This document shows, one piece after another, positions 5,129 to 47,912 of a stretch of DNA of 47,912 bases. A model generated the notes under the pieces. The model did no database searches. It saw only the letters and a list, made by a program, of their open reading frames with translations, and was not told the origin of the DNA. A program made the translations under genes and the position numbers. Origin of the DNA: a virus; IMG/VR virus record IMGVR_UViG_3300050026_000188; one strand, 5' to 3'. How positions within the stretch are numbered: position 1 is the stretch's first letter; every line of letters begins with the position of its first letter.

Positions 5129-5915
5129 ACCCACAGTTGTGCGTGCGGTACACGCCAACCGCGGCATCGCCGCTCTCTACCATCGCCGCATGATGGCTTT
5201 GATAGATGAGATGGACGCGAGCATTCTGCATTGGATCTCTGCGACGTACCGCCAGGCTCCCCCGCTACTCGCCCAGGACGCGAGCCCCGACTGGGAATAC
5301 AGCTTCGACGATCTGGGGAAGCGTTGGATCAAGCGCTTCGAGGATGCCGCGCCGAAGATCGCCGAAGCCTACCTCAAAGGGCAATTCAAGGCTACAGATT
5401 CCGCGATGCGCCAGGCTCTAAAAGATGCCGGTTGGACGGTCAAATTTGAGATGACTCCCGTGATGCGGGAAGCGTATGAGGCTTCGCTCGCTGAGAATAT
5501 CGGCTTGATCCGTTCGATCCCTCAACAGTATTTGCAGCAAGTTGAGGGAATCGCGATGCGGTCCTATACCGCCGGCCGCGACTTACAGCAGATGGTGACT
5601 GCCCTCAAGCGGCTTTACCCGAGAGCCGCTAACCGCGCCGTACTCATCTCGCTTGATCAGAGCAACAAAGCCAACGCAGTAGTTACCCAGGCGCGCCAGA
5701 CTGAGTTAGGGATCGTGGAATCCGTATGGATGCACTCGCACGCCGGCAAGACGCCGCGCCCTACTCACGTTGCCATGAATGGCAAGACGTACAAGGTAGC
5801 TCAGGGAATGTGGGATAGCGACGAAAAGAAGTGGATCTTCCCTGGAGAGTTGATCAACTGCCGTTGTACCGGCCGCTCAGTGATCCCCGCTTTCGCTGCC
5901 AGATCCGCTAAGTAA
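5118..5915 (+). CDS. Head morphogenesis protein (Mu F / SPP1 gp7 family)
   Basis: C-terminal GELINCRCTG motif typical of the family; position after the portal. Confidence 0.75.
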   Translation: MDTKPTVVRAVHANRGIAALYHRRMMALIDEMDASILHWISATYRQAPPLLAQDASPDWEYSFDDLGKRWIKRFEDAAPKIAEAYLKGQFKATDSAMRQALKDAGWTVKFEMTPVMREAYEASLAENIGLIRSIPQQYLQQVEGIAMRSYTAGRDLQQMVTALKRLYPRAANRAVLISLDQSNKANAVVTQARQTELGIVESVWMHSHAGKTPRPTHVAMNGKTYKVAQGMWDSDEKKWIFPGELINCRCTGRSVIPAFAARSAK

Positions 5916-11172: not shown

Positions 11173-11564
11173 TGGATTTGAGATCAGTGGCAAATTCCGC
11201 CAGCAATGCGATCAACCCCAACATGATCGTGAGCGTCAAGCGATCAACGGGCTATACCGTGGGAGCGGGGCTCAAGCAAGTTCCCGCTTACGCCGCGCCC
11301 GTCTCGGGACCGGCTCAGCTTCAAGCGCTTGACGGCTCCGAGCTTCGGCAGATCGAAGGGCTCAACCTGCAGGGAGTTATCCGCGGGATCTATCTCCGCG
11401 GCAACCTGGCGGGAGTGATACGCCCGAACGGTACCGGCGGAGATCTCGTAATTATCGCGCCGCCCGCGCCGGCCGCCTTCGTTGGTACCTGGCTTTGCGT
11501 GAAGATTTTAGAGACGTGGCCGCTCTGGGCAAAAGCTGTCGTGGTATTGCAAGAGGGATCATAA
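11172..11564 (+). CDS. Hypothetical tail-completion-region protein
   Basis: 130-aa ORF in the pre-sheath position. Confidence 0.3.
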   Translation: MDLRSVANSASNAINPNMIVSVKRSTGYTVGAGLKQVPAYAAPVSGPAQLQALDGSELRQIEGLNLQGVIRGIYLRGNLAGVIRPNGTGGDLVIIAPPAPAAFVGTWLCVKILETWPLWAKAVVVLQEGS

Positions 11565-12079
11565 TGCCCGCGCCTATACCCTTTCTGGCTTCGATCAGCA
11601 TTGACGCCGTAATCGAAGCCCTGGGCGCATTCCTGCAGCCATTCGTAGGAGCCGCACAGATCATCCGCGCCCAGGTGAATCGCGTTGCTCCGCCGGCCGC
11701 GCCTTACGTGGAACTCACCGAAATTCTGCAGGTACCGCTAGAGACTCCGATTGACGTAGACAACGGAGCCAACGCGCAAACGGACATTACCGGACCAAAG
11801 CGGATCGATATTCAAATTGACTTCCGCGGTCCCGCTTCGGGCGACTGGTGTACAGCCGTAACAACTATTTACCGGAGTCCTTACGCGCCGGCTCAATTTC
11901 CCGATGGCATAAAACCGTTGTATTGTTCGGACGGTCATCAGATGCCGCTTACCACGGGTGAGCAACAATACGAAACCCGTTGGACGCTTACGGCGAGCTT
12001 GCAGTACAATCCGACTGTAAGTATTCCGCAACAGTCCGCTAATACTTTGGCGGTAAATATTATGGAGGCTTCGCAATAA
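11564..12079 (+). CDS. Hypothetical structural protein (possible tail terminator)
   Basis: ATG at 11564 (MPAPIPFLASI...); immediately upstream of the sheath gene. Confidence 0.3.
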   Translation: MPAPIPFLASISIDAVIEALGAFLQPFVGAAQIIRAQVNRVAPPAAPYVELTEILQVPLETPIDVDNGANAQTDITGPKRIDIQIDFRGPASGDWCTAVTTIYRSPYAPAQFPDGIKPLYCSDGHQMPLTTGEQQYETRWTLTASLQYNPTVSIPQQSANTLAVNIMEASQ

Positions 12080-13602
12080 TGACTATTCCCGCGTCTCGAA
12101 TTGCAAGAGTAAACCCCGGCGTTGTGAATAGCGGCGGAACGTCGCTGGTGATGAATGGGCTCTTCCTCACTCAAAATACCGCGATGCCCACGGCTTCGGC
12201 TTTCAACTTCGCGAGCCCCACGGCGGTAGCAAATTTCTTCGGTCCAGCATCCGCCGAAGCCGCCCTAGCAAAGATCTATTTCGCCGGCTACAGCAATTCC
12301 ACGATCAAGCCTGGCGGGATGATCTTCGCTCCCTTCAATCTTGCCGCTCGCTCCGCCTTCCTGCAGAGCGGATCGCTCGCCGGATTGAGCCTGGCACAGC
12401 TTGAAGTGCTGAGCGGTACGCTCATCCTCACCGTTGCCGGCGTGGTAGAGACTTCGGCCGCGATTGATCTGTCTACCGCCGGCAGTTTCAGCGGCGCGGC
12501 TACTCTCATTCAAGCCGGTTTCACAACTCCCCCCTTCACCGTTGCGTGGAATCCCGTTACCAGTGCGTTCGTGATCACCACCACGGCAACCGGCGCAACG
12601 GAGACGATCACTTTCGCAAGCGGGACGCTCGCCGCCGGGCTCAATCTGACTCAGGCAACCGGCGCGATTCTCTCGCAGGGAGCCGCGCTCGATACGCCGG
12701 CTACCGCAATGGCGAACGCCGTGCGCGTGACGCAGAACTTCGCGAGCGTTGTAACGCTATGGGAGCCGACTCTCAGCGATAAGGAAGGCTTCGCGGCCTG
12801 GTTCAATGCGGCCAACCTTGAATATCTGTATCTCGGTTGGGATTCCGATCCGAACGCATCGGTACTCGGAAATACAACCTGTTTCGGCGCGGTAACGAAG
12901 GCCGCTCAGTGGAACGGCGTTGCGTGCATCTCCGGAGATCCGGCGTTAGCTCTCGCGAGCGGCACCACTCTCGCCGCGCTCGCGCTCAACGTCGCTACGT
13001 TCGTGGCCGGCGCGATTGCTTCGATCAACTCCGGCGCAACCAACGGGCGCGTTACTCTCGCCTTCCTTGCTCAGTCGGGGATGGCTCCCACGGTTGCAGA
13101 CGATCAGATCTCTCAGAATTTGCTCGCGAACGGTTACAGCTTCTACGGATCGTATGCGACGGCGAATGATGGCTTCGTTTTCTTCTACAACGGGCAGATG
13201 CCGGGCGAGTTCGGTTTCATCGATTCCTTCGTCAATCAGATTTACCTCAACGCACAATTTCAGTTGGCGATGCTCACGTTGCTTACCAACATCGGAGACT
13301 TCCCCTATACCCCATCCGGTTACGGGTTGCTTCGTTCGGCGCTGATGGACCCTATCAATGCGGCGCTTGCTTTCGGAACGATTCGCACGGGAGTTACTCT
13401 TTCGGCCGCGCAGATCTCCGAAGTCAACCTGGCCGCCGGCGTTGACGCTGCAAGCGTGATTCAGACGGCCGGCTACTACCTGCAGATCCTTGACCCTGGC
13501 GCTCAGGTTCGCGGGCTCCGCGGCAGCCCTATCGTCAACTTCTGGTATAGCGACGGCGGCGCGGTCCAATTTATCAACATGGCAAGCATTGACATTCTGT
13601 AA
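12079..13602 (+). CDS. Tail sheath protein (DUF3383-like)
   Basis: 507-aa ORF followed by a tube-like gene, then chaperone with frameshift and tape measure: the contractile-tail order. Confidence 0.65.
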   Translation: MTIPASRIARVNPGVVNSGGTSLVMNGLFLTQNTAMPTASAFNFASPTAVANFFGPASAEAALAKIYFAGYSNSTIKPGGMIFAPFNLAARSAFLQSGSLAGLSLAQLEVLSGTLILTVAGVVETSAAIDLSTAGSFSGAATLIQAGFTTPPFTVAWNPVTSAFVITTTATGATETITFASGTLAAGLNLTQATGAILSQGAALDTPATAMANAVRVTQNFASVVTLWEPTLSDKEGFAAWFNAANLEYLYLGWDSDPNASVLGNTTCFGAVTKAAQWNGVACISGDPALALASGTTLAALALNVATFVAGAIASINSGATNGRVTLAFLAQSGMAPTVADDQISQNLLANGYSFYGSYATANDGFVFFYNGQMPGEFGFIDSFVNQIYLNAQFQLAMLTLLTNIGDFPYTPSGYGLLRSALMDPINAALAFGTIRTGVTLSAAQISEVNLAAGVDAASVIQTAGYYLQILDPGAQVRGLRGSPIVNFWYSDGGAVQFINMASIDIL

Positions 13603-13911
13603 CTGAAAGAGGGCAGCATTTTGGACACTTCGATCAATGCGGCGCTCGCCTTCGGAGCCATTCGCACGGGCGTTACGCTTTCGGATGAGCAGATCTCCGA
13701 AGTCAACCAGGCCGCCGGCGTAGACGCTGCAAGCGTGATTCAGACGGCCGGCAACTACCTGCAGATCCTTGACCCTGGCGCTCAGGTTCGCGGGCTCCGC
13801 GGCAGCCCTATCGTCAACCTCTGGTACGCCGATGGTGACGCGGTCCAAACCATAACGATGGCAAGCATCGACATTCTGTAACTGAAAGAGGGCAGCATTT
13901 TGGACACTTCG
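13354..13911 (+). repeat. Tandem duplication, two 279-bp units (13354..13632 and 13633..13911), about 90% identical
   Basis: Base-by-base alignment: about 25 substitutions in the 249 coding nt, none in the 30 nt of stop + AGAGGG + TTG start region. Confidence 0.85.
13621..13881 (+). CDS. Free-standing paralogue of the sheath C-terminal domain (86 aa)
   Basis: Begins with the same AGAGGG-TTG-GAC-ACT-TCG as the tube gene, then encodes a diverged copy of the last 83 aa of the sheath. Confidence 0.4.
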   Translation: MDTSINAALAFGAIRTGVTLSDEQISEVNQAAGVDAASVIQTAGNYLQILDPGAQVRGLRGSPIVNLWYADGDAVQTITMASIDIL

Positions 13912-14334
13912 ATAACCTCAGCAAATTCCGTATTCACGATCTCTGTCCCCGGCTTGTTTCCTATCCCTCAGCAGTTGAAGGGATACTCCGCAGAGAAGGC
14001 TTGGAGCAGCGATAACCTCGACCTGGCAGAGACTCAGATGGGCGTAGATGGCCGCTTGACCGCCGGCTATACCCCGATGGCTGTAAAGCAGACGATCAGC
14101 CTGCAGGCCGACTCCCCGAGTAAGCAGATCTTCAAAACCATTCAGGCCGCGACTCGGGCGGCGCGGGATGTGTATTACATAAACGGCACGATTGATCTGC
14201 CGTCCACGGGTGAATCCTTCATCGGTACCCGCGGCGTGCTGCAGGCAGTGAAGCCCCTTCCGGACGCCGGCAAGGTTTTGCAGCCGATGGAGTTTGCAAT
14301 TGTGTGGGAGAGTCTGGTGCCCACTCTCCTGTAA
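13900..14334 (+). CDS. Tail tube protein (DUF3277-like)
   Basis: About 145 aa directly after the sheath; TTG start with AGAGGG upstream; YINGTIDLP region. Confidence 0.65.
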   Translation: MDTSITSANSVFTISVPGLFPIPQQLKGYSAEKAWSSDNLDLAETQMGVDGRLTAGYTPMAVKQTISLQADSPSKQIFKTIQAATRAARDVYYINGTIDLPSTGESFIGTRGVLQAVKPLPDAGKVLQPMEFAIVWESLVPTLL

Positions 14335-14370: not shown

Positions 14371-14832
14371 ATGAATTACAGCAAAAATGCGCCGGCCTTC
14401 GCAGCATCGTTTGAGGGGTACTCGCCCGTTTCGGTGCATCATCCGGAAGATCCCCCGGACGTATGGACAATGGGATTTGGCTCAACATATTGGAGCGGCG
14501 CGAAGGTAACTGAGGGTATGACGTGTACCCGCGATGAAGCGCTCTTGCAGTTGGCGGGCGGCCTTGAGAGTGCGGCGCGATGCGTCAATCTCTCGCTGCA
14601 TGTGACCGTAACCCAGGACGAGTTTGACGCTTGCACGGATCTTACTTACAACATCGGCTGCTCGCGCTGGCAGGAATCCACCGCGAGGGAGCGGCTCAAC
14701 GCTGGGGATTACGCTGGCGCAGCATCAGCCTTCGAGATGTGGGATCGTGCGGGCGGCGTAGTGATGGCAGGATTGCTCCGACGCCGGAAGGCTGAGGAAG
14801 TTCTATTTGATACGCAGGGAGTATCGGCATGA
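14371..14832 (+). CDS. Lysozyme, glycoside hydrolase family 24 (T4/P22-type muramidase)
   Basis: FEG...D...WTMGFGST catalytic block (Glu/Asp/Thr) and C-terminal NIG...LNAGDY...W...GG...GLLRRRKAEEVLF pattern. Confidence 0.8.
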   Translation: MNYSKNAPAFAASFEGYSPVSVHHPEDPPDVWTMGFGSTYWSGAKVTEGMTCTRDEALLQLAGGLESAARCVNLSLHVTVTQDEFDACTDLTYNIGCSRWQESTARERLNAGDYAGAASAFEMWDRAGGVVMAGLLRRRKAEEVLFDTQGVSA

Positions 14833-15493: not shown

Positions 15494-17275
15494 ATGCCTA
15501 CAATCATAGATTCTTTAGTAGTCAGCCTAGGCCTCGACTCCAAAGACTTGGATGCGAAGAGCGGCTCTGCGGGCAAGAAGCTAAAAGAAGTTGAGGGGCA
15601 ATCTGCAAAGACTGAGGGCGGCGTAAGGAAGATCGGCGTCGCCAGCAAAGAGGCGGCGGTCGGAGTCGGCGGGCTAACCCGCACGCTGGGGAGCTTCCTC
15701 GCGCTCATCGCCGGAACGATGGCGATCAAGGCGTTTGCATCCGACTTCATCGATGCCAACGCCGCATTGCTACGACTCTCTCAGAATCTCGGTCTAGGCG
15801 TCTCAACTATCTCAGCGTGGGGGAAAGCCTCCGAAGAGCTCGGCGGGAGCGCGGCGGGGCTGCAGGGCACGCTAGACATGCTCTCAATGTCGCAGACGGA
15901 GCTTCGTCTAACCGGGCAATCCTCTCTGATCCCCTATTTCTCAGCGCTCGGGGTATCGCTCGCCGACGTGAACGGCAAGGCGCGGCCGGTTGACGCAATT
16001 CTTTTGGATCTCGCAGATCGCTTCTCTCGTATGGACCGGACAACCGCAAACAACATGGGCCGGATGATGGGGATCGATCAAGGGACCATGAACCTGCTTT
16101 TGCAGGGGCGCAAAGAGCTTGAGCTAACGATCAAGCGCCAGAAGGAAAGTACGGCGGTCACGCAGAAGCAGGCCGAAGCCGCCCAGAAGCTACAGACTCA
16201 GATTGTGGAGACGAAGCAAAAGTTTACGGCGCTTGGGAATGCGCTGATGCTTGAGGCAGCGCCGGCGCTTGAGAGACTCGCTGATCTCTTCCTTCGCCTG
16301 GGCAACTGGGTACTCGACAATGAGGAACTCGTAACGGACTTCCTGAAGGTGATGGCGGTCGGGCTGGGAGCAATCGCGCTCATAACTGCCCCGATCAATC
16401 TCGCAGTGGTTGCCGTACTCGCGCTCGCCGCTGGCATCGCGCTGCTCTGGCAGGACTATCAGGTATGGAAGCGCGGCGGTACATCCTTTATCGACTGGGC
16501 GAAGTGGGAGCCTGAGATTAGGATGGCTACGAAGGCCATCACTCTTCTAGGCGACGCCATAGCGCGAGTGATCGGGCTCAAGAGCCAGCCTGCAAACAAT
16601 CACGCCCCAGGCTCGGGGTACACCCAACTCAAGGACAACGCCCCCGCGGGCTGGGCGAGTCCGGGCGGCGGTGAGCCCGGGGGCGCGGCCACTGGTGAGC
16701 AGATCAAAAAGTATTTCGAGGGGCAAGGATGGAGTTCCGCTCAGGCCGCCGGCATTGCTGCAAACTTTATGCGCGAGAGTGTCGGCCGAACTAAGGCACC
16801 GGGGGACGGCGGTCACGCATACGGTTTAGGGCAGTGGCACTCAGACCGGCAAGCCAACTTTGCGAAATTTGCCGGGCACAGTATCAAGTCATCTACTCTC
16901 CCTGAGCAATTGGCTTTTGCTCAGTACGAACTTACTCACGGTGAGAAGAGGGCGGGAGATGCGCTCCGCGGGGCGACTAACGCAGGGCAGGCCGGCGCGA
17001 TTGTGTCACGGATGTATGAGCGGCCGGCAGACGCAGACGGCGAAGCGAGACTGCGCTCATCTCTCGCTCTGGCGCTCGCGGGCGTCGGCGGGGCAACCGG
17101 CGCAATCGCGGCGGCGAGCCCCACGCCGGCGGGCTCTGGCGTGTCTTCGAGCGATAGCAGCGTTACAAACCATATCGGAGAGATCAAGGTTTACACGGCT
17201 GCCACTGATGCGAACGGCATCGCTCGGGGCATGAACTTCCTCTTCACCAGCCAGGCTAATGCGGGGCTCAACTAA
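15494..17275 (+). CDS. Tape measure protein with C-terminal lysozyme-like domain
   Basis: Long helical, Ala/Leu/Gln-rich protein with a hydrophobic segment (VMAVGLGAIALITAPINLAVVAVLALAAGIALLW); C-terminal GIAANFMRESVGRT...HAYGLGQW...R block resembling phage tail lysozyme domains. Confidence 0.8.
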   Translation: MPTIIDSLVVSLGLDSKDLDAKSGSAGKKLKEVEGQSAKTEGGVRKIGVASKEAAVGVGGLTRTLGSFLALIAGTMAIKAFASDFIDANAALLRLSQNLGLGVSTISAWGKASEELGGSAAGLQGTLDMLSMSQTELRLTGQSSLIPYFSALGVSLADVNGKARPVDAILLDLADRFSRMDRTTANNMGRMMGIDQGTMNLLLQGRKELELTIKRQKESTAVTQKQAEAAQKLQTQIVETKQKFTALGNALMLEAAPALERLADLFLRLGNWVLDNEELVTDFLKVMAVGLGAIALITAPINLAVVAVLALAAGIALLWQDYQVWKRGGTSFIDWAKWEPEIRMATKAITLLGDAIARVIGLKSQPANNHAPGSGYTQLKDNAPAGWASPGGGEPGGAATGEQIKKYFEGQGWSSAQAAGIAANFMRESVGRTKAPGDGGHAYGLGQWHSDRQANFAKFAGHSIKSSTLPEQLAFAQYELTHGEKRAGDALRGATNAGQAGAIVSRMYERPADADGEARLRSSLALALAGVGGATGAIAAASPTPAGSGVSSSDSSVTNHIGEIKVYTAATDANGIARGMNFLFTSQANAGLN

Positions 17276-41335: not shown

Positions 41336-41467
41336 TGCCGGCTTCGAGTCCCTAAGTAGGAGCGATGCACTAAAAAGCCCCCTCAGTTGAGGGGGCTGGC
41401 GGCACTCGGGGAGCCGGTTAGATGTGCATAAGAGCGCGATTGGATGCGAGCGAACGGGGGAAGCGTC

Positions 41468-41641
41468 TCAGCGTCGCATTCTTCCGGCGAAGGGATCAGG
41501 GCGGCCCAGGGCTGCTGTGACGCGCGCCAGCTCGATCTGATCAAGCATCGGCAGATCGGGTTTGGAGCCGATCTGATCTTTGATCGTCAGGGCTAAGATG
41601 GTGAGCAAGCTGAGTGCGGCAGGGATAAACAAAATGTACAT
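41468..41641 (-). CDS. Small membrane protein
   Basis: ATG with GGAGGA upstream; hydrophobic helix ILFIPAALSLLTILALTI. Confidence 0.3.
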   Translation of the reverse strand: MYILFIPAALSLLTILALTIKDQIGSKPDLPMLDQIELARVTAALGRPDPFAGRMRR

Positions 41642-41659
41642 GGAATCCTCCAAGTTGAG

Positions 41660-41688
41660 ATATTACCAAGTTACTAGTAAGCTGTCAA
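41660..41688 (-). promoter_or_regulatory. Promoter-operator cassette copy 3
   Basis: TTGACA - 17 nt with TTACTAGTAA - TAATAT, then leader with GGAGGA. Confidence 0.45.
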
Positions 41689-41858
41689 GAGTTATTTTCA
41701 TTTATTTCGAGCGTTTCCGCGTCGCATTCTTCCGGCGAAGGGATTGGGGCGGCCTTTACAACCTGGGCGCATACCAGGTGCATCGCGGCGCGGCGGGCTT
41801 TGCTACTGGGGGACGCGAGCAGGATCGCCAAGCTATCAGAGAGGATCTTCGCGGTCAT
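41685..41858 (-). CDS. Hypothetical small protein
   Basis: Short ORF; 3' end carries the same ~35-bp element as the neighbouring gene. Confidence 0.25.
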   Translation of the reverse strand: MTAKILSDSLAILLASPSSKARRAAMHLVCAQVVKAAPIPSPEECDAETLEINENNS

Positions 41859-42103
41859 GCTGCTACCTCCCACGCCCACGCGCCAGGCTTGTAAGTGCTC
41901 TGCGAGAGCTTCGAGCCGCGGAGAGTGATCACGCGAAGGCTACCGTCTGCCCGCAACACCAGAGCGCCCCCGCGCCGGCGAGCCCAGGCGTTGACGGCCG
42001 CCTTCCATGATGCCGCTTTCGTGGCGTTCGCGAGATTGCGCCATTCGGCAACGGTGAGAAGGTTGGTAGGCTGAGCGTTCGGGTTGAAGTTCGTAACTGT
42101 CAT
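41855..42103 (-). CDS. Small protein, paralogue B (MTVTNFNPNAQPT... N-terminus)
   Basis: Shares N-terminus and 5' leader with the upstream gene. Confidence 0.3.
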   Translation of the reverse strand: MTVTNFNPNAQPTNLLTVAEWRNLANATKAASWKAAVNAWARRRGGALVLRADGSLRVITLRGSKLSQSTYKPGAWAWEVAA

Positions 42104-42406
42104 TTTTGGGGTATCCTCTCGACTGCAGATACAAGAGCCTCAGCGATCCGCCGCAACGTTGCAGCATCGAAGGCGTAGTTATTCGCGGCGTTGATCCTGG
42201 CGGCCATCTCTTCGCAGGTGAGTTCCGGCGTGTTGAGGTAACGAGTGATCTCTTGAAAGAGATCCCCAGTAACTTGGTAATCTATATATGCAGTCGAGAG
42301 GATACAGCAAAATGCTTTCGTGGCGTTCGCGAGCTTGGTAGGCTGAGCGTTCGGGTTGAAGTTCGTAACTGTCATTTTTGGGGTATCTTCTCGACTGCAG
42401 ATACAG
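42015..42406. repeat. Direct repeat of about 95 bp (42015..42133 and 42314..42406) carrying leader + N-terminal coding sequence of two adjacent small genes
   Basis: Near-identical copies differing by one 28-bp indel and one substitution. Confidence 0.8.
42100..42375 (-). CDS. Small protein, paralogue A (MTVTNFNPNAQPT... N-terminus)
   Basis: ATG at 42375; the ORF track starts at 42414 with an alternative codon. Confidence 0.3.
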   Translation of the reverse strand: MTVTNFNPNAQPTKLANATKAFCCILSTAYIDYQVTGDLFQEITRYLNTPELTCEEMAARINAANNYAFDAATLRRIAEALVSAVERIPQK

Positions 42407-42433
42407 ATTAGCAAGTTACTAGTAAGCTGTCAA
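42405..42433 (-). promoter_or_regulatory. Promoter-operator cassette copy 4
   Basis: TTGACA - 17 nt with TTACTAGTAA - TAATCT. Confidence 0.4.
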
Positions 42434-42825
42434 CATAATAATGAATCTAATTTATATTCGGCCTGCAGGCGAACGCGAACGGCGTCAAGCGCCAGACATT
42501 CGGCCTTTACGAATTCGTAAGCCTTCGGGAAGCCCATCGCCGGCAGTGCGTTGCGCTGAGCAAACTTCGCTTCCTGGGCGCGGTACTCTGGGGACTGGCG
42601 AAGGATTGCTTGAGCCGCCCTGGTGCGTTCGGCGCGGTACTCATCAGCCGCCGTCTTCGGGTGAGCGATGCCAGTGTTGCGGGTAACGCATACCGAGCCG
42701 TAATGAAGGATCTCACCAGATGAGAGAAGCTCAACGGCGAAGGTTCCCTTGAGCCCAGTCTTACCGCAACAATCGCAGTTTGTAACCTCATCAGTGAAGC
42801 CGAAGATCTTGAATTTGTTTTCCAT
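42430..42825 (-). CDS. Cys-rich hypothetical protein
   Basis: NCDCCGKTG ... C motif; ATG 6 nt downstream of a -10-like hexamer. Confidence 0.35.
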   Translation of the reverse strand: MENKFKIFGFTDEVTNCDCCGKTGLKGTFAVELLSSGEILHYGSVCVTRNTGIAHPKTAADEYRAERTRAAQAILRQSPEYRAQEAKFAQRNALPAMGFPKAYEFVKAECLALDAVRVRLQAEYKLDSLLC

Positions 42826-42831
42826 AAAGAG

Positions 42832-42860
42832 ATATTACCAAGTTACTAGTAAGATGTCAA
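42832..42860 (-). promoter_or_regulatory. Promoter-operator cassette copy 5 (leaderless layout)
   Basis: TTGACA - 17 nt with TTACTAGTAA - TAATAT, then 6 nt to ATG; the 44-bp surround is nearly identical to copy 3. Confidence 0.45.
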
Positions 42861-42869
42861 GAGTTATTT

Positions 42870-43026
42870 TCAAATTCTTTTAGAAGCAATCGTTCCCTTG
42901 CTTCGCGGTATCCTGAGCTTGCGATAGAGGGTTCCCCTTCCAATCTGGATCAGCTTGGCTGCTTGGCGCTTATCGCCGTCGCATCGACGTACGGCCTCAT
43001 GGATCAGTCGCATCTCAAGCTCTGCC
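42870..43026 (-). CDS. Fis-type helix-turn-helix DNA-binding protein
   Basis: MAELEMRLIHEAVRRCDGDKRQAAKLIQIGRGTLYRKLR matches the Fis/NtrC C-terminal HTH pattern; ATG at 43026 (ORF track starts further upstream). Confidence 0.5.
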
Positions 43027-47200: not shown

Positions 47201-47912
47201 TGTTGCTGGCGTTGGAGGCGTAAGTTTCAGCATTCGATTGAGCCGTGGAAGCTGCGCCAGAAGCATCATAGGCCGTTGATGCGGTAAACGCCGCAGTACC
47301 AAATACGCCCCCAGCCGCAGTCGTCAGATAGGAAAGCGTCGTTACGGTTGGCGCAACCGGAGTGTAGGTCAACGCGGTAGTCACCTGGCCAGAGGTCATG
47401 CCGGTTAGGTTCGCCATACTGAAGGTCGGTGCCGCCGTGAAAGTCGGAGCCGCGCTGCTGCCGGTGAAGTTGCCAAAAACGGTGTTCGCCGCCTGATTCT
47501 TGAGTGTTGCCGTGACCGTTCCGCTGGTTGTTACCGCTGTACTCGGAGTCGAACTGTCCACCGTGCCATCGCCCGTGAAGGTCACGCTGCTTACGCTTCC
47601 CGTAGATGTTCCGCACGTTGGGCAAGAGATCGCTCCCGTTGCCGCGACTACAATTGGGAGTGTTCCGCTCAGTCCAGCCGAACCAACCGAGCCGATGGGA
47701 ATGCCAGTCGGCAGATAACTCACTCCAATGGTTCCAGTGTTGATGTGGCTGGCATTCTGCGCGTAAGTCTCGGCATTGCTCTGAGCCGTTGCCGCCGCAC
47801 CGGAAGCATCCGCTCCCACACTTGCCGCTGTTGCCGAGATCGCCCCCGCCGTGTTGAGGATGCTTGTCCCATCCGGCTTCACGCCTCCGAGCACGGTCGA
47901 AGTCGCCGTGGG
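44232..47912 (-). CDS. C-terminal part of the giant secreted tail-fibre-like protein (N-terminal part at 907..1)
   Basis: ORF is open to the window edge and matches 1..77; A..S..A..S fibre-type repeats (TAQSNAETYA.NAS twice); several N.GIGTTSP motifs. Confidence 0.6.
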   Translation of the reverse strand, partial: PTATSTVLGGVKPDGTSILNTAGAISATAASVGADASGAAATAQSNAETYAQNASHINTGTIGVSYLPTGIPIGSVGSAGLSGTLPIVVAATGAISCPTCGTSTGSVSSVTFTGDGTVDSSTPSTAVTTSGTVTATLKNQAANTVFGNFTGSSAAPTFTAAPTFSMANLTGMTSGQVTTALTYTPVAPTVTTLSYLTTAAGGVFGTAAFTASTAYDASGAASTAQSNAETYASNASNISSGTVGYSYLPIGTSASHVPSGGVITAAGPTGSATAIPVITYNAAGQLTAVTTATPTVAVVNGVSYGSSPSTNTVPVVTGTNTVTYEAVPNAALANSVTTVNGQNCALGGTCTISASAGTITVGTTTIAGGTTGHIEYNNSGVLGELSTYGSGSVLLGSGAVGSAAYTASTAYATAAQGTKADNAGAVTGAVKSNGSATFSQAACGDLSNGASGCSTTVGTAATHAATDFQLALTNPVTGPGSATANDAVTFTGTGDQVQDSGVAIYTIPSSNLNLGGGLPLTYGGASSIAIGNSSTLASSTGTVNIAIGTSNLLGASGSFNIAIGAEAIGYGGIETGSNNIGLGDSALYNLTSGGNNIGIGNNTLATNSSGSYSTGIGSGALQFTTTGNGNTAAGYLAGTLLPTGYHNITGSYGTFLGQNTQASANGNTNEIVVGSTAVGAGSNTAVIGNAAVTDEYFGSAAGLATLHGAAFTGNSSTATNLSTNGTANQVWGMNSGATAQGWQTPGSTMTYPGANTIGVANSGNTAWRTPLYSDITALFGSGSCSGALMSSGGCTALPSVGTWGALNYPTWTTGTPFVKMTAAGTFALDTNTYGTFTLPSLTSGSVLFSNGSTIAQDNSNFFWDATNHRLGIGTTGPSGQLSLGNPSTDTNLRTYGISDQGVFNFYQAQNFPTAGIYARILDIVSGSQNTLSQIRFLTQNDGLSGPTEKVRIDNNGNVGIGTTSPVQALDLGTGALRTGGLTIAGNPTVFANPIVINGQTPPAFIYLDSTYNVLRIGAQSTYTTLAFELPGSPAYEDVMQLTATGLNPAPAFDNTINLGVTGQRWKSLWVGTGGGIFQGNVGIGTTSPAALLSVGSSSQFQVSSTGVSSAGAGSTDLNGSGVPEAHCLADGTGCPGGTLYNAAGTQLTSAHTVMGLTTLSGGAATVTFSGSAIFTSSSSYACMTSATVSTINLNALGVTYTSGSSVTFSDDGGLGSDAIRYICIGN

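Follow-up and report, generated by a model that had tools for sequence, protein, structure and literature searches.

A 279-bp tandem duplication across the sheath-tube junction of a myophage genome, probably a young structural polymorphism that joins two alleles of the sheath 3' end

The locus described here lies in the tail module of the IMG/VR virus record IMGVR_UViG_3300050026_000188, a stretch of 47,912 nucleotides (nt) that was analysed as a whole and is referred to below as the window. The window is a complete circular phage genome of 47,835 bp, in which nt 1-77 recur exactly at 47836-47912 according to self-BLAST. Between the gene of the tail sheath protein and the gene of the tail tube protein it contains a tandem duplication, the second copy of which provides a free-standing open reading frame (ORF) of 86 amino acids (aa), named here ORF86, that combines the start of the tube gene with a second version of the sheath C-terminus. 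We consider it likely that this is a young and unstable 279-bp duplication that segregates as a structural polymorphism in one myophage population, joins two alleles of the sheath 3' end and decays by recombination. The positions of the genes and of the parts of the repeat are given in Table 1.

The sheath protein is of the E217 gp31 (DUF3383) type, spans positions 2-490 of the 493 positions of the PF11863 profile and, in phmmer searches, matches the chains of the E217 gp31 sheath in 8fvg/8env and 9b42 with E = 1e-16 to 1e-17. For the tube gene, the JGI gene calls (L036:2501-2797) give a product of only 98 aa from an internal ATG and overlook the TTG start at 13900. Because both the Pfam profile and an N-terminus that is conserved among relatives (M[DN][TD]SITSANSVF) support the longer form, the tube protein is taken here to be the 144-aa product. 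Judged by these profile matches, the identities of the sheath, tube and terminator genes can be regarded as secure.

Table 1. Positions of the tail genes and of the elements of the tandem duplication in the window.
Feature	Position	Strand or location	Content or match
Tail terminator gene	11495-12079	upstream of the sheath gene	PF23961
Tail sheath gene, 507 aa, E217 gp31 / DUF3383 type	12079..13602	+	PF11863, E = 2e-106
Copy 1 ("allele 1")	13354..13632	+	sheath codons 426-507, TAA, 18-nt spacer with GAGG, first 12 nt of the tube start
65-nt core, identical in both copies	13475..13539 (second at 13754-13818)	+	encodes YLQILDPGAQVRGLRGSPIVN; putative crossover site of the hybrids
42-nt tail, identical in both copies	13591..13632 (second at 13870-13911)	+	found by direct comparison
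Novel junction of the duplication	13619..13634	+	tube start TTGGACACTTCGAT joined to sheath CAATGCG
ORF86, 86 aa, TTG start	13621..13881	+	MDTS of the tube gene, continued in frame by the final 82 sheath-allele codons
Copy 2 ("allele 2")	13633..13911	+	26 mismatches to copy 1, then stop, spacer and tube start unchanged
Tail tube gene, 144 aa, TTG start	13900..14334	+	PF22764 (E217_Gp32), E = 4e-23, aligned from residue 4

Only one repeat family is present at the locus. It consists of two direct copies of 279 nt, arranged head-to-tail at a spacing that equals the unit length and without intervening sequence, and self-BLAST aligns them with E = 5e-109. The unit comprises 93 codons in frame and extends from sheath codon 426 through tube codon 4. 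An earlier interpretation made from the letters of the window alone, called here the sequence-only reading, had proposed exactly this tandem unit, from the sheath interior to the fourth tube codon, as well as a free-standing 86-aa ORF that takes its ribosome-binding site (RBS) and TTG start from the tube gene and repeats the sheath end in another version; the repeat search and self-BLAST bear out the former, and the latter stands as well, with a sheath part of 82-83 codons. Its details needed some adjustment. In a direct comparison the copies show 26 mismatches and no indels (90.7% identity), with every mismatch located within 13368-13590, so that the reported divergence of about 25 of 249 coding positions is real but amounts to 26 of 249. 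From copy 1 to copy 2 there are ten amino-acid changes (T>A, A>D, A>E, L>Q, Y>N, F>L, S>A, G>D, F>T and N>T) instead of the nine that had been given. The stop, RBS and start are indeed identical, as had been said of 30 nt, but the identical tail is actually 42 nt long and contains 9 coding nt, TAA, the 18-nt RBS spacer and TTG GAC ACT TCG, the first 12 nt of the tube gene.

The 12-nt tube start at the end of copy 1 acts as the start of ORF86 and has GAGG 7 nt upstream, at the same spacing as the tube gene at 13900. ORF86 is probably translated, as the duplication brings along the RBS and start of the tube gene. At the novel junction, TTGGACACTTCGAT is followed directly by CAATGCGGCGCTCGCC. The parental sheath context reads CTGATGGACCCTAT followed by CAATG and the parental tube context TTGGACACTTCGAT followed by AACCTC, and the two have only the 2-nt microhomology AT in common, which lies inside the imperfect homology TGGAC.C.T..AT. 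The sheath gene, ORF86 and the tube gene also share one reading frame, and they are separated from each other by TAA and 18 nt without a further stop (13600-13620 and 13879-13899). Readthrough of TAA would fuse the neighbouring products, which is probably irrelevant.

In an assembled genome of this kind, two strains with different sheath 3' ends might have been stitched into a false tandem repeat, particularly as two alleles do occur in the population (the sheath of the single-copy contig L037, described below, versus the copy-1 sheaths) and several contigs break at the repeat boundaries. However, the junction is present base for base in the ENA contigs L001-L003, in the JGI contigs L004/L041, L036, L038-L040, L042 and L045 plus 13 similar places, and in the IMG/VR contigs L007, L008/L030 and L010/L028 besides the window, while ORF86 is recorded on 24 JGI contigs, three ENA contigs and one further contig. 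The identical junction thus recurs in contigs of JGI, ENA (with two naming styles) and IMG/VR, more than 20 in all, and in many samples, and it is absent from every single-copy genome. Because the parental contexts share only AT, no k-mer or de Bruijn graph could create it from single-copy strains. The contig breaks themselves are the expected behaviour of an assembler at a true repeat: among the short contigs that start at repeat-boundary nodes, L002 begins with the last 55-mer of the 65-nt core, L035 begins 30 nt before the end of the core, L034 starts at the first base of the identical 42-nt tail, and L001-L003 and L035 all begin inside the core. An artefact is effectively refuted and has next to no probability; the duplication is genuine. 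The sequence-only reading had regarded genomes with a single copy as a possible sign that two strains had been collapsed in the assembly. Single-copy genomes were found, but the tandem form is real and no collapse.

These genomes became apparent when the 26 diagnostic sites were typed in every contig that encodes an identical tube protein. In the majority form, form D, which includes the window and about 20 or more others, the sheath ends in copy 1 and is followed by ORF86 (copy 2). Form 2 is represented by L037 (JGI 3300037097, 35.3 kb), which has a single copy with the copy-2 state at 26 of 26 sites. This contig equals the window minus 279 nt, its flanks showing no mismatch over 2,097 nt upstream and 2,935 nt downstream, and its unit is joined to the sheath body as GATGGACCCTAT followed by CAATGCGGCGCTCGCC. 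Its sheath protein (P0157) has a body identical to that of the window sheath and an end that is purely copy 2. L037 cannot be a repeat collapse, because the starts of the two units share only 14 nt (ATCAATGCGGCGCT). As the copy-2 peptides of ORF86 are otherwise common to the L037-type sheath, the junction peptide MDTSINAALAFGAIR is the sole diagnostic one for ORF86. Form H comprises L033 (NCBI GCA_003191745.1) and L044, which have a single copy with copy-1 states at sites 1-12 and copy-2 states at sites 13-26; the switch falls in the identical 65-nt core. For 4.4 kb downstream, L033 and the window are 100% identical, and the partial contig L043 is also hybrid-like. Finally, L042 is a form D contig with a conversion, in which copy 1 carries the copy-2 base at 13474 and both copies are retained. 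As the identical backbone exists without the duplication (L037, L033 and L044), ORF86 is dispensable. The sole ORF86-specific polymorphism in the population is found in L045, a T>C exchange at the equivalent of 13736 that is nonsynonymous (V39A), and this contig also has patch differences in the sheath body. The source of L033, GCA_003191745.1, is a set of permafrost viral populations, and at least part of the phage population derives from a permafrost-thaw site.

The duplication-bearing contigs are all 99.8-100% identical to the window, and from the genomes compared the duplication is limited to one strain-level lineage. It was not found in any diverged relative (≤94% identity) in IMG/VR, JGI, Logan or ENA. 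These relatives have one sheath C-terminus followed by the tube gene, as seen in L005 (94% nt identity), L009 (87%), L018 (84%) and L015-17 (approximately 70%), and a single sheath C-terminus is likewise present in L012-14, L019-27, L031, L032 and the P0022 contig; in L018, a homing endonuclease gene intervenes before the tube gene. The duplication is also absent in the GenBank phages with this sheath family, for which 194 records gave one matching place each with a sheath protein at most 47% identical, and there was no nucleotide-level match to GenBank phages. Scans of a metagenome contig collection for the phage gave no match, the collection being without this phage, and a scan of genome contigs gave none either, hence no clue to a host or prophage. 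A comparison of the sheath-tube junctions of related phages, which the sequence-only reading had proposed, thus speaks against a maintained paralogue. Other "86-aa" proteins obtained in a search of 5.8 billion proteins were rejected as free-standing homologues, since they start at an internal, conserved Met (MIDPI...) of ordinary sheaths. A related case is L006 (68% identical), in which a conserved Tyr codon is replaced by an in-frame TAG at 2041-2043 (SG*SLIR), 18 nt ahead of the internal Met. Its sheath is thus called as products of 400 aa and 86 aa, without any duplication. The TAG could be a sequencing error, a defective genome or a case of stop-codon suppression.

The ~10% divergence of the copies had been read as the mark of a maintained, diversifying paralogue. 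This does not hold, since copy 2 equals the full-length sheath end of L037 at 26 of 26 sites and its bases occur in other phages at 17 of the 26. The single unit of L005 has 96% identity to copy 1. Copy 2 has the base of L009 at 12 sites, including the adjacent codons GATGAG (Asp-Glu), where by a rough estimate sharing at roughly 1-2 sites is expected by chance, and at five more sites its base is common to L018 or L015/16. Among the diverged relatives, one site is unique to copy 1 and eight are unique to copy 2. L018 was considered as donor of copy 2 and rejected, being approximately 20% different. Judged against outgroups, copy 2 has derived states in common with L009 at 13392, 13398, 13406, 13409 and 13549, which conflicts with a simple duplication tree and indicates recombination.

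The differences are distributed unevenly along the unit, with nine in the first 60 nt, two in the next 60 nt, one in the next 66 nt, 14 in the 51 nt at 13540-13590 and none in the last 42 nt. In permutation tests, 14 differences in 51 nt gave p = 0.0004 and a gap of 65 nt p = 0.018, and the empty tail (0 of 26 differences) has a hypergeometric P of 0.012. The spacer within this tail differs among the window, L005 and L009, though it is identical between the copies of the window. As it has diverged in L005 and L009, the two window spacers look recently common, unlike the coding patches. Patches of clustered substitutions on otherwise identical backbones also occur elsewhere in the sheath gene, at 12813-12837 (L010, L045), 12681-12769 (L045) and 12501-12646 (L033); L010, for instance, has eight mismatches in 25 nt and none elsewhere in 4.4 kb. 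The mismatch profile of the window against L005 ranges from 0 to 19 per 100 nt. The sheath patches indicate a frequent patch-wise exchange with relatives.

The model behind the sequence-only reading was an old duplication that diverged in place, which would require secondary loss for the single-copy relatives and L037. Such a history agrees with the position of copy 2 outside the pair of copy 1 and L005 when the whole unit is used for the tree, with the roughly clock-like numbers of changes on the two branches and with a ratio of nonsynonymous to synonymous substitution rates (dN/dS) below 1. It is nevertheless very unlikely, as the tail and the core are identical in the two copies while the orthologous spacer of L005 and L009 diverged, the derived states shared by copy 2 and L009 do not fit its tree, the differences are clustered in two patches, and no diverged lineage keeps the duplication. 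The dN/dS between copy 1 and copy 2, which had also been suggested as a test, is 0.28, without a signal of selection specific to ORF86. Orthologous sheath ends give 0.22-0.32, and since the value of the copies matches that of the orthologues, it probably reflects selection on full-length sheaths and not on ORF86. For the changes unique to copy 2 among the diverged relatives, ω is approximately 0.5, a value statistically indistinguishable from 1 (p = 0.25). We infer that the 26 differences, or at least most of them, did not arise in place: they either entered by homologous exchange with related phages or existed as allelic variants before the duplication formed.

For the young duplication that we favour, the following history would account for these observations. 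At the 2-nt microhomology, illegitimate recombination placed sheath codon 425/426 in frame behind tube codon 4/5. The copies are two alleles of the sheath 3' end, copy 1 being L005-like and copy 2 a mosaic that is partly L009-like and that also appears as a genuine full-length sheath C-terminus on the identical backbone (L037). They could have come together by two routes, either by a crossover between two genomes that replicated together and were distinguished by an allelic patch in the 3' end of the sheath gene, or by a duplication inside one genome into which patches were subsequently imported from relatives. The tandem form would then have spread. Homologous recombination between the copies would yield single-copy derivatives, the crossover point deciding whether these carry copy 2 only (L037) or are hybrids via the core (L033, L044); L042 in addition has a one-site conversion.

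Several points weigh against this history. The order of events could run either from the duplicated to the single form or from the single to the duplicated form. A copy-1-only genome on this backbone, the parent required by the two-allele crossover, was not found in the IMG/VR search; the searches of IMG/VR for single-copy junctions of all three kinds (copy 1 only, copy 2 only and hybrid) gave 0 matches. The hybrids L033 and L044 could be true recombinants and deletion products, or they could be walks of the assembler through the 65-nt core. Moreover, the duplicated form predominates, with ORF86 on approximately 28 contigs versus 3-4 single-copy contigs, although these are numbers of contigs, whose many samples probably go back to one or a few shared sites (only the origin of L033 was checked), and not of independent populations. 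The majority status, together with an intact, in-frame ORF86 placed behind an RBS, could reflect selection for ORF86. The predominance of the duplicated form is no proof of its usefulness, because most deletions also switch the sheath C-terminus to copy-2 or hybrid sequence, and a copy-2 or hybrid C-terminus may itself be less fit.

Whether a function of ORF86 is plausible depends on what part of the sheath it represents. ORF86 matches positions 409-490 of the 493 positions of the PF11863 profile only (E = 3e-13), and its AlphaFold2 model, with a predicted local distance difference test score (pLDDT) of 72.9, has helices at 3-12, 22-32 and 37-43 and strands at 45-49, 65-71 and 74-80. It is thus predicted to consist of three helices of domain C, the beta-turn (a beta-hairpin) and the C-terminal arm. 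In E217 gp31, the C-terminal beta-turn (460-488), the C-terminal arm (491-504) and the N-terminal arm (1-23) of three neighbouring subunits build a four-stranded intermolecular sheet, by which alone the subunits of the extended sheath are connected, and the C-terminal extension of the terminator binds the same beta-turn (PMC10329688). By alignment to 9b42/8fvg, ORF86 holds two of these three lattice-building elements, namely the beta-hairpin and the C-terminal arm, so that binding to sheath subunits or to the terminator would be possible in principle, by analogy with E217. A Foldseek search of the ORF86 model against the PDB gave no match with E ≤ 0.001, the E217 sheath appearing at rank 10 with E = 0.67, and for ORF86 neither a gp25-type (sheath initiator) nor a terminator profile was found, as Pfam gives DUF3383 alone. 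In the model, ORF86 is a piece of a domain and not an autonomous one.

A free lattice-forming module could cap or tune the polymerisation of the sheath, or poison the sheaths of co-infecting relatives, and be kept by selection. The intact frame, the RBS and TTG start of the highly expressed tube gene, the presence of the E217 gp31 elements for the intermolecular sheet and for binding of the terminator extension (PMC10329688) and the predominance of the duplicated form would agree with this, and copy 2 differs from copy 1 at residues of the lattice, among them Y>N where strand 1 begins, F>L within strand 2 and, in the hinge, DGG>DGD. However, ORF86 is absent from every diverged relative and dispensable on the same backbone, it has neither an autonomous fold nor an ORF-specific signal of selection, and the "special" residues are not specific to it, as all of them occur in the full-length sheath of L037. 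For the same reason, Y>N, F>L and G>D were rejected as signs of decay or neofunctionalisation of a free ORF86. We regard a functional ORF86 as unlikely, and take an equally doubtful or slightly more sceptical view of the fuller version, in which ORF86 is translated at tube-like levels, caps or times sheath growth or acts as a dominant-negative weapon, owes its predominance to selection and is a gene caught at birth. Most likely, ORF86 is a tolerated by-product without a dedicated function.

The sequence-only reading had also considered a recombination reservoir. In this case copy 2 would be a donor cassette, whose recombination or gene conversion with the sheath 3' end gives an adaptive switching of the C-terminus. 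One backbone does bear copy 1, copy 2, a hybrid and copy 1 with one converted site (L037, L033, L044, L042), and the hybrid C-termini of L033 and L044 together with the L042 conversion lend descriptive support to a reservoir, but nothing shows an adaptive value. In three of the four variants a deletion has destroyed the cassette, an outcome expected of any decaying tandem repeat. The only candidate for a transfer into the sheath that retains the cassette is L042 at 13474, the other variants having lost a copy. There is a single cassette without dedicated recombination machinery, a selective agent acting on the lattice strands of the sheath is not known, and the hybrids may be assembly collapses. 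An adaptive cassette is accordingly held to be highly improbable.

Further observations concern other parts of the genome and of its relatives. Directly after the tube gene, a lysozyme gene (PF00959) is located at 14371-14832, and a 593-aa protein encoded further downstream at 15494-17275 bears a second lysozyme domain (PF18013). An ORF at 962-1639 gives a sub-threshold match to NUMOD3 (E = 7e-4) and matches the homing endonuclease of L018 in tblastn (E = 4e-5); it is located just upstream of the large terminase gene, and a GIY-YIG domain was not detected in it. In L018, the gene of this endonuclease, with GIY-YIG and NUMOD3 domains, lies at 537-1142 (listed as an ORF at 417-1142), exactly between the sheath stop and the tube start. 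L032, which has a tube protein 83% identical to that of the window, contains at 5426-5875 a gene of the Endonuclease_7 family (PF02945), located between a 156-aa gene and a large tail gene with a lysozyme domain, another mobile nuclease in the tail module; the window has no nuclease at this place. Short direct repeats are clustered at 41462-42872 (41462-41506/41710-41754 with 91% identity, 41657-41700/42829-42872 with 98% and 42060-42133/42332-42405 with 97%), and this cluster could be a regulatory or origin-like region.

As a gene, ORF86 is probably of no consequence, since nothing shows an activity of the 86-aa product. The locus is of interest as a natural snapshot of one population that contains the duplicated form, two kinds of deletion products and a conversion variant, all on an identical backbone. 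Illegitimate recombination and allele exchange can instantly make what looks like a "diverged paralogue", complete with a perfect RBS and a low dN/dS, and the mixing of alleles is the explanation for the signature of a diverged, constrained paralogue seen here. This calls for caution where a maintained function is to be inferred from tandem copies that diverge within one assembly. Should the fragment prove to be expressed and active after all, it would be a rare documented birth of a new gene from the lattice-forming end of a sheath.

Among known systems, the E217 gp31 sheath (PF11863; PDB 8fvg, 8env) is the structural counterpart, to which ORF86 aligns over the last ~82 profile positions with the beta-turn and the C-terminal arm. 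Unlike that protein, ORF86 is a fragment and not a sheath protein: domains A and B, the N-terminal arm and the greater part of domain C are missing. In Pakpunavirus, free-standing GIY-YIG homing endonuclease genes are located between the sheath and tube genes (PMC12846349). As in these phages and in L018, extra DNA is held at the same intergenic site in the window, and the patchy allele exchange resembles endonuclease-driven co-conversion. In contrast to them, the window has no endonuclease gene at 13603-13899, and its extra DNA is a copy of the end of the neighbouring gene. By analogy, endonuclease-induced breaks could, as a conjecture, account for an aberrant repair at this locus as well as for the patchiness of the allele exchange; a causal link of double-strand-break repair to the duplication would be speculation.

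Contractile injection systems have paralogous or split sheath proteins, such as Afp2/3/4, Pvc2/3/4 and TssB/TssC in type VI secretion systems (T6SS). The window resembles them in that elements of the sheath lattice are present on more than one polypeptide. However, the subunits of the Afp, Pvc and T6SS sheaths are conserved across families and are full-length or complementary, whereas ORF86 is a redundant fragment of one strain-level lineage.

The locus itself resembles the tandem segmental duplications of phages that arise by illegitimate, microhomology-mediated recombination and disappear again when their copies recombine homologously. The head-to-tail arrangement without spacer, the 2-nt microhomology at the junction, the polymorphism of presence and absence on an identical backbone and the deletion crossover in the longest identical tract are all shared with them. 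The locus is probably a new instance of this familiar process, that is, a partial-gene tandem duplication by illegitimate recombination that is polymorphic and decaying. It differs from such duplications in two respects. The copies are already 9% different, being or having become two alleles of the phage gene pool, and the event is in frame and RBS-carrying, so that a translatable fragment of a structural protein arises.

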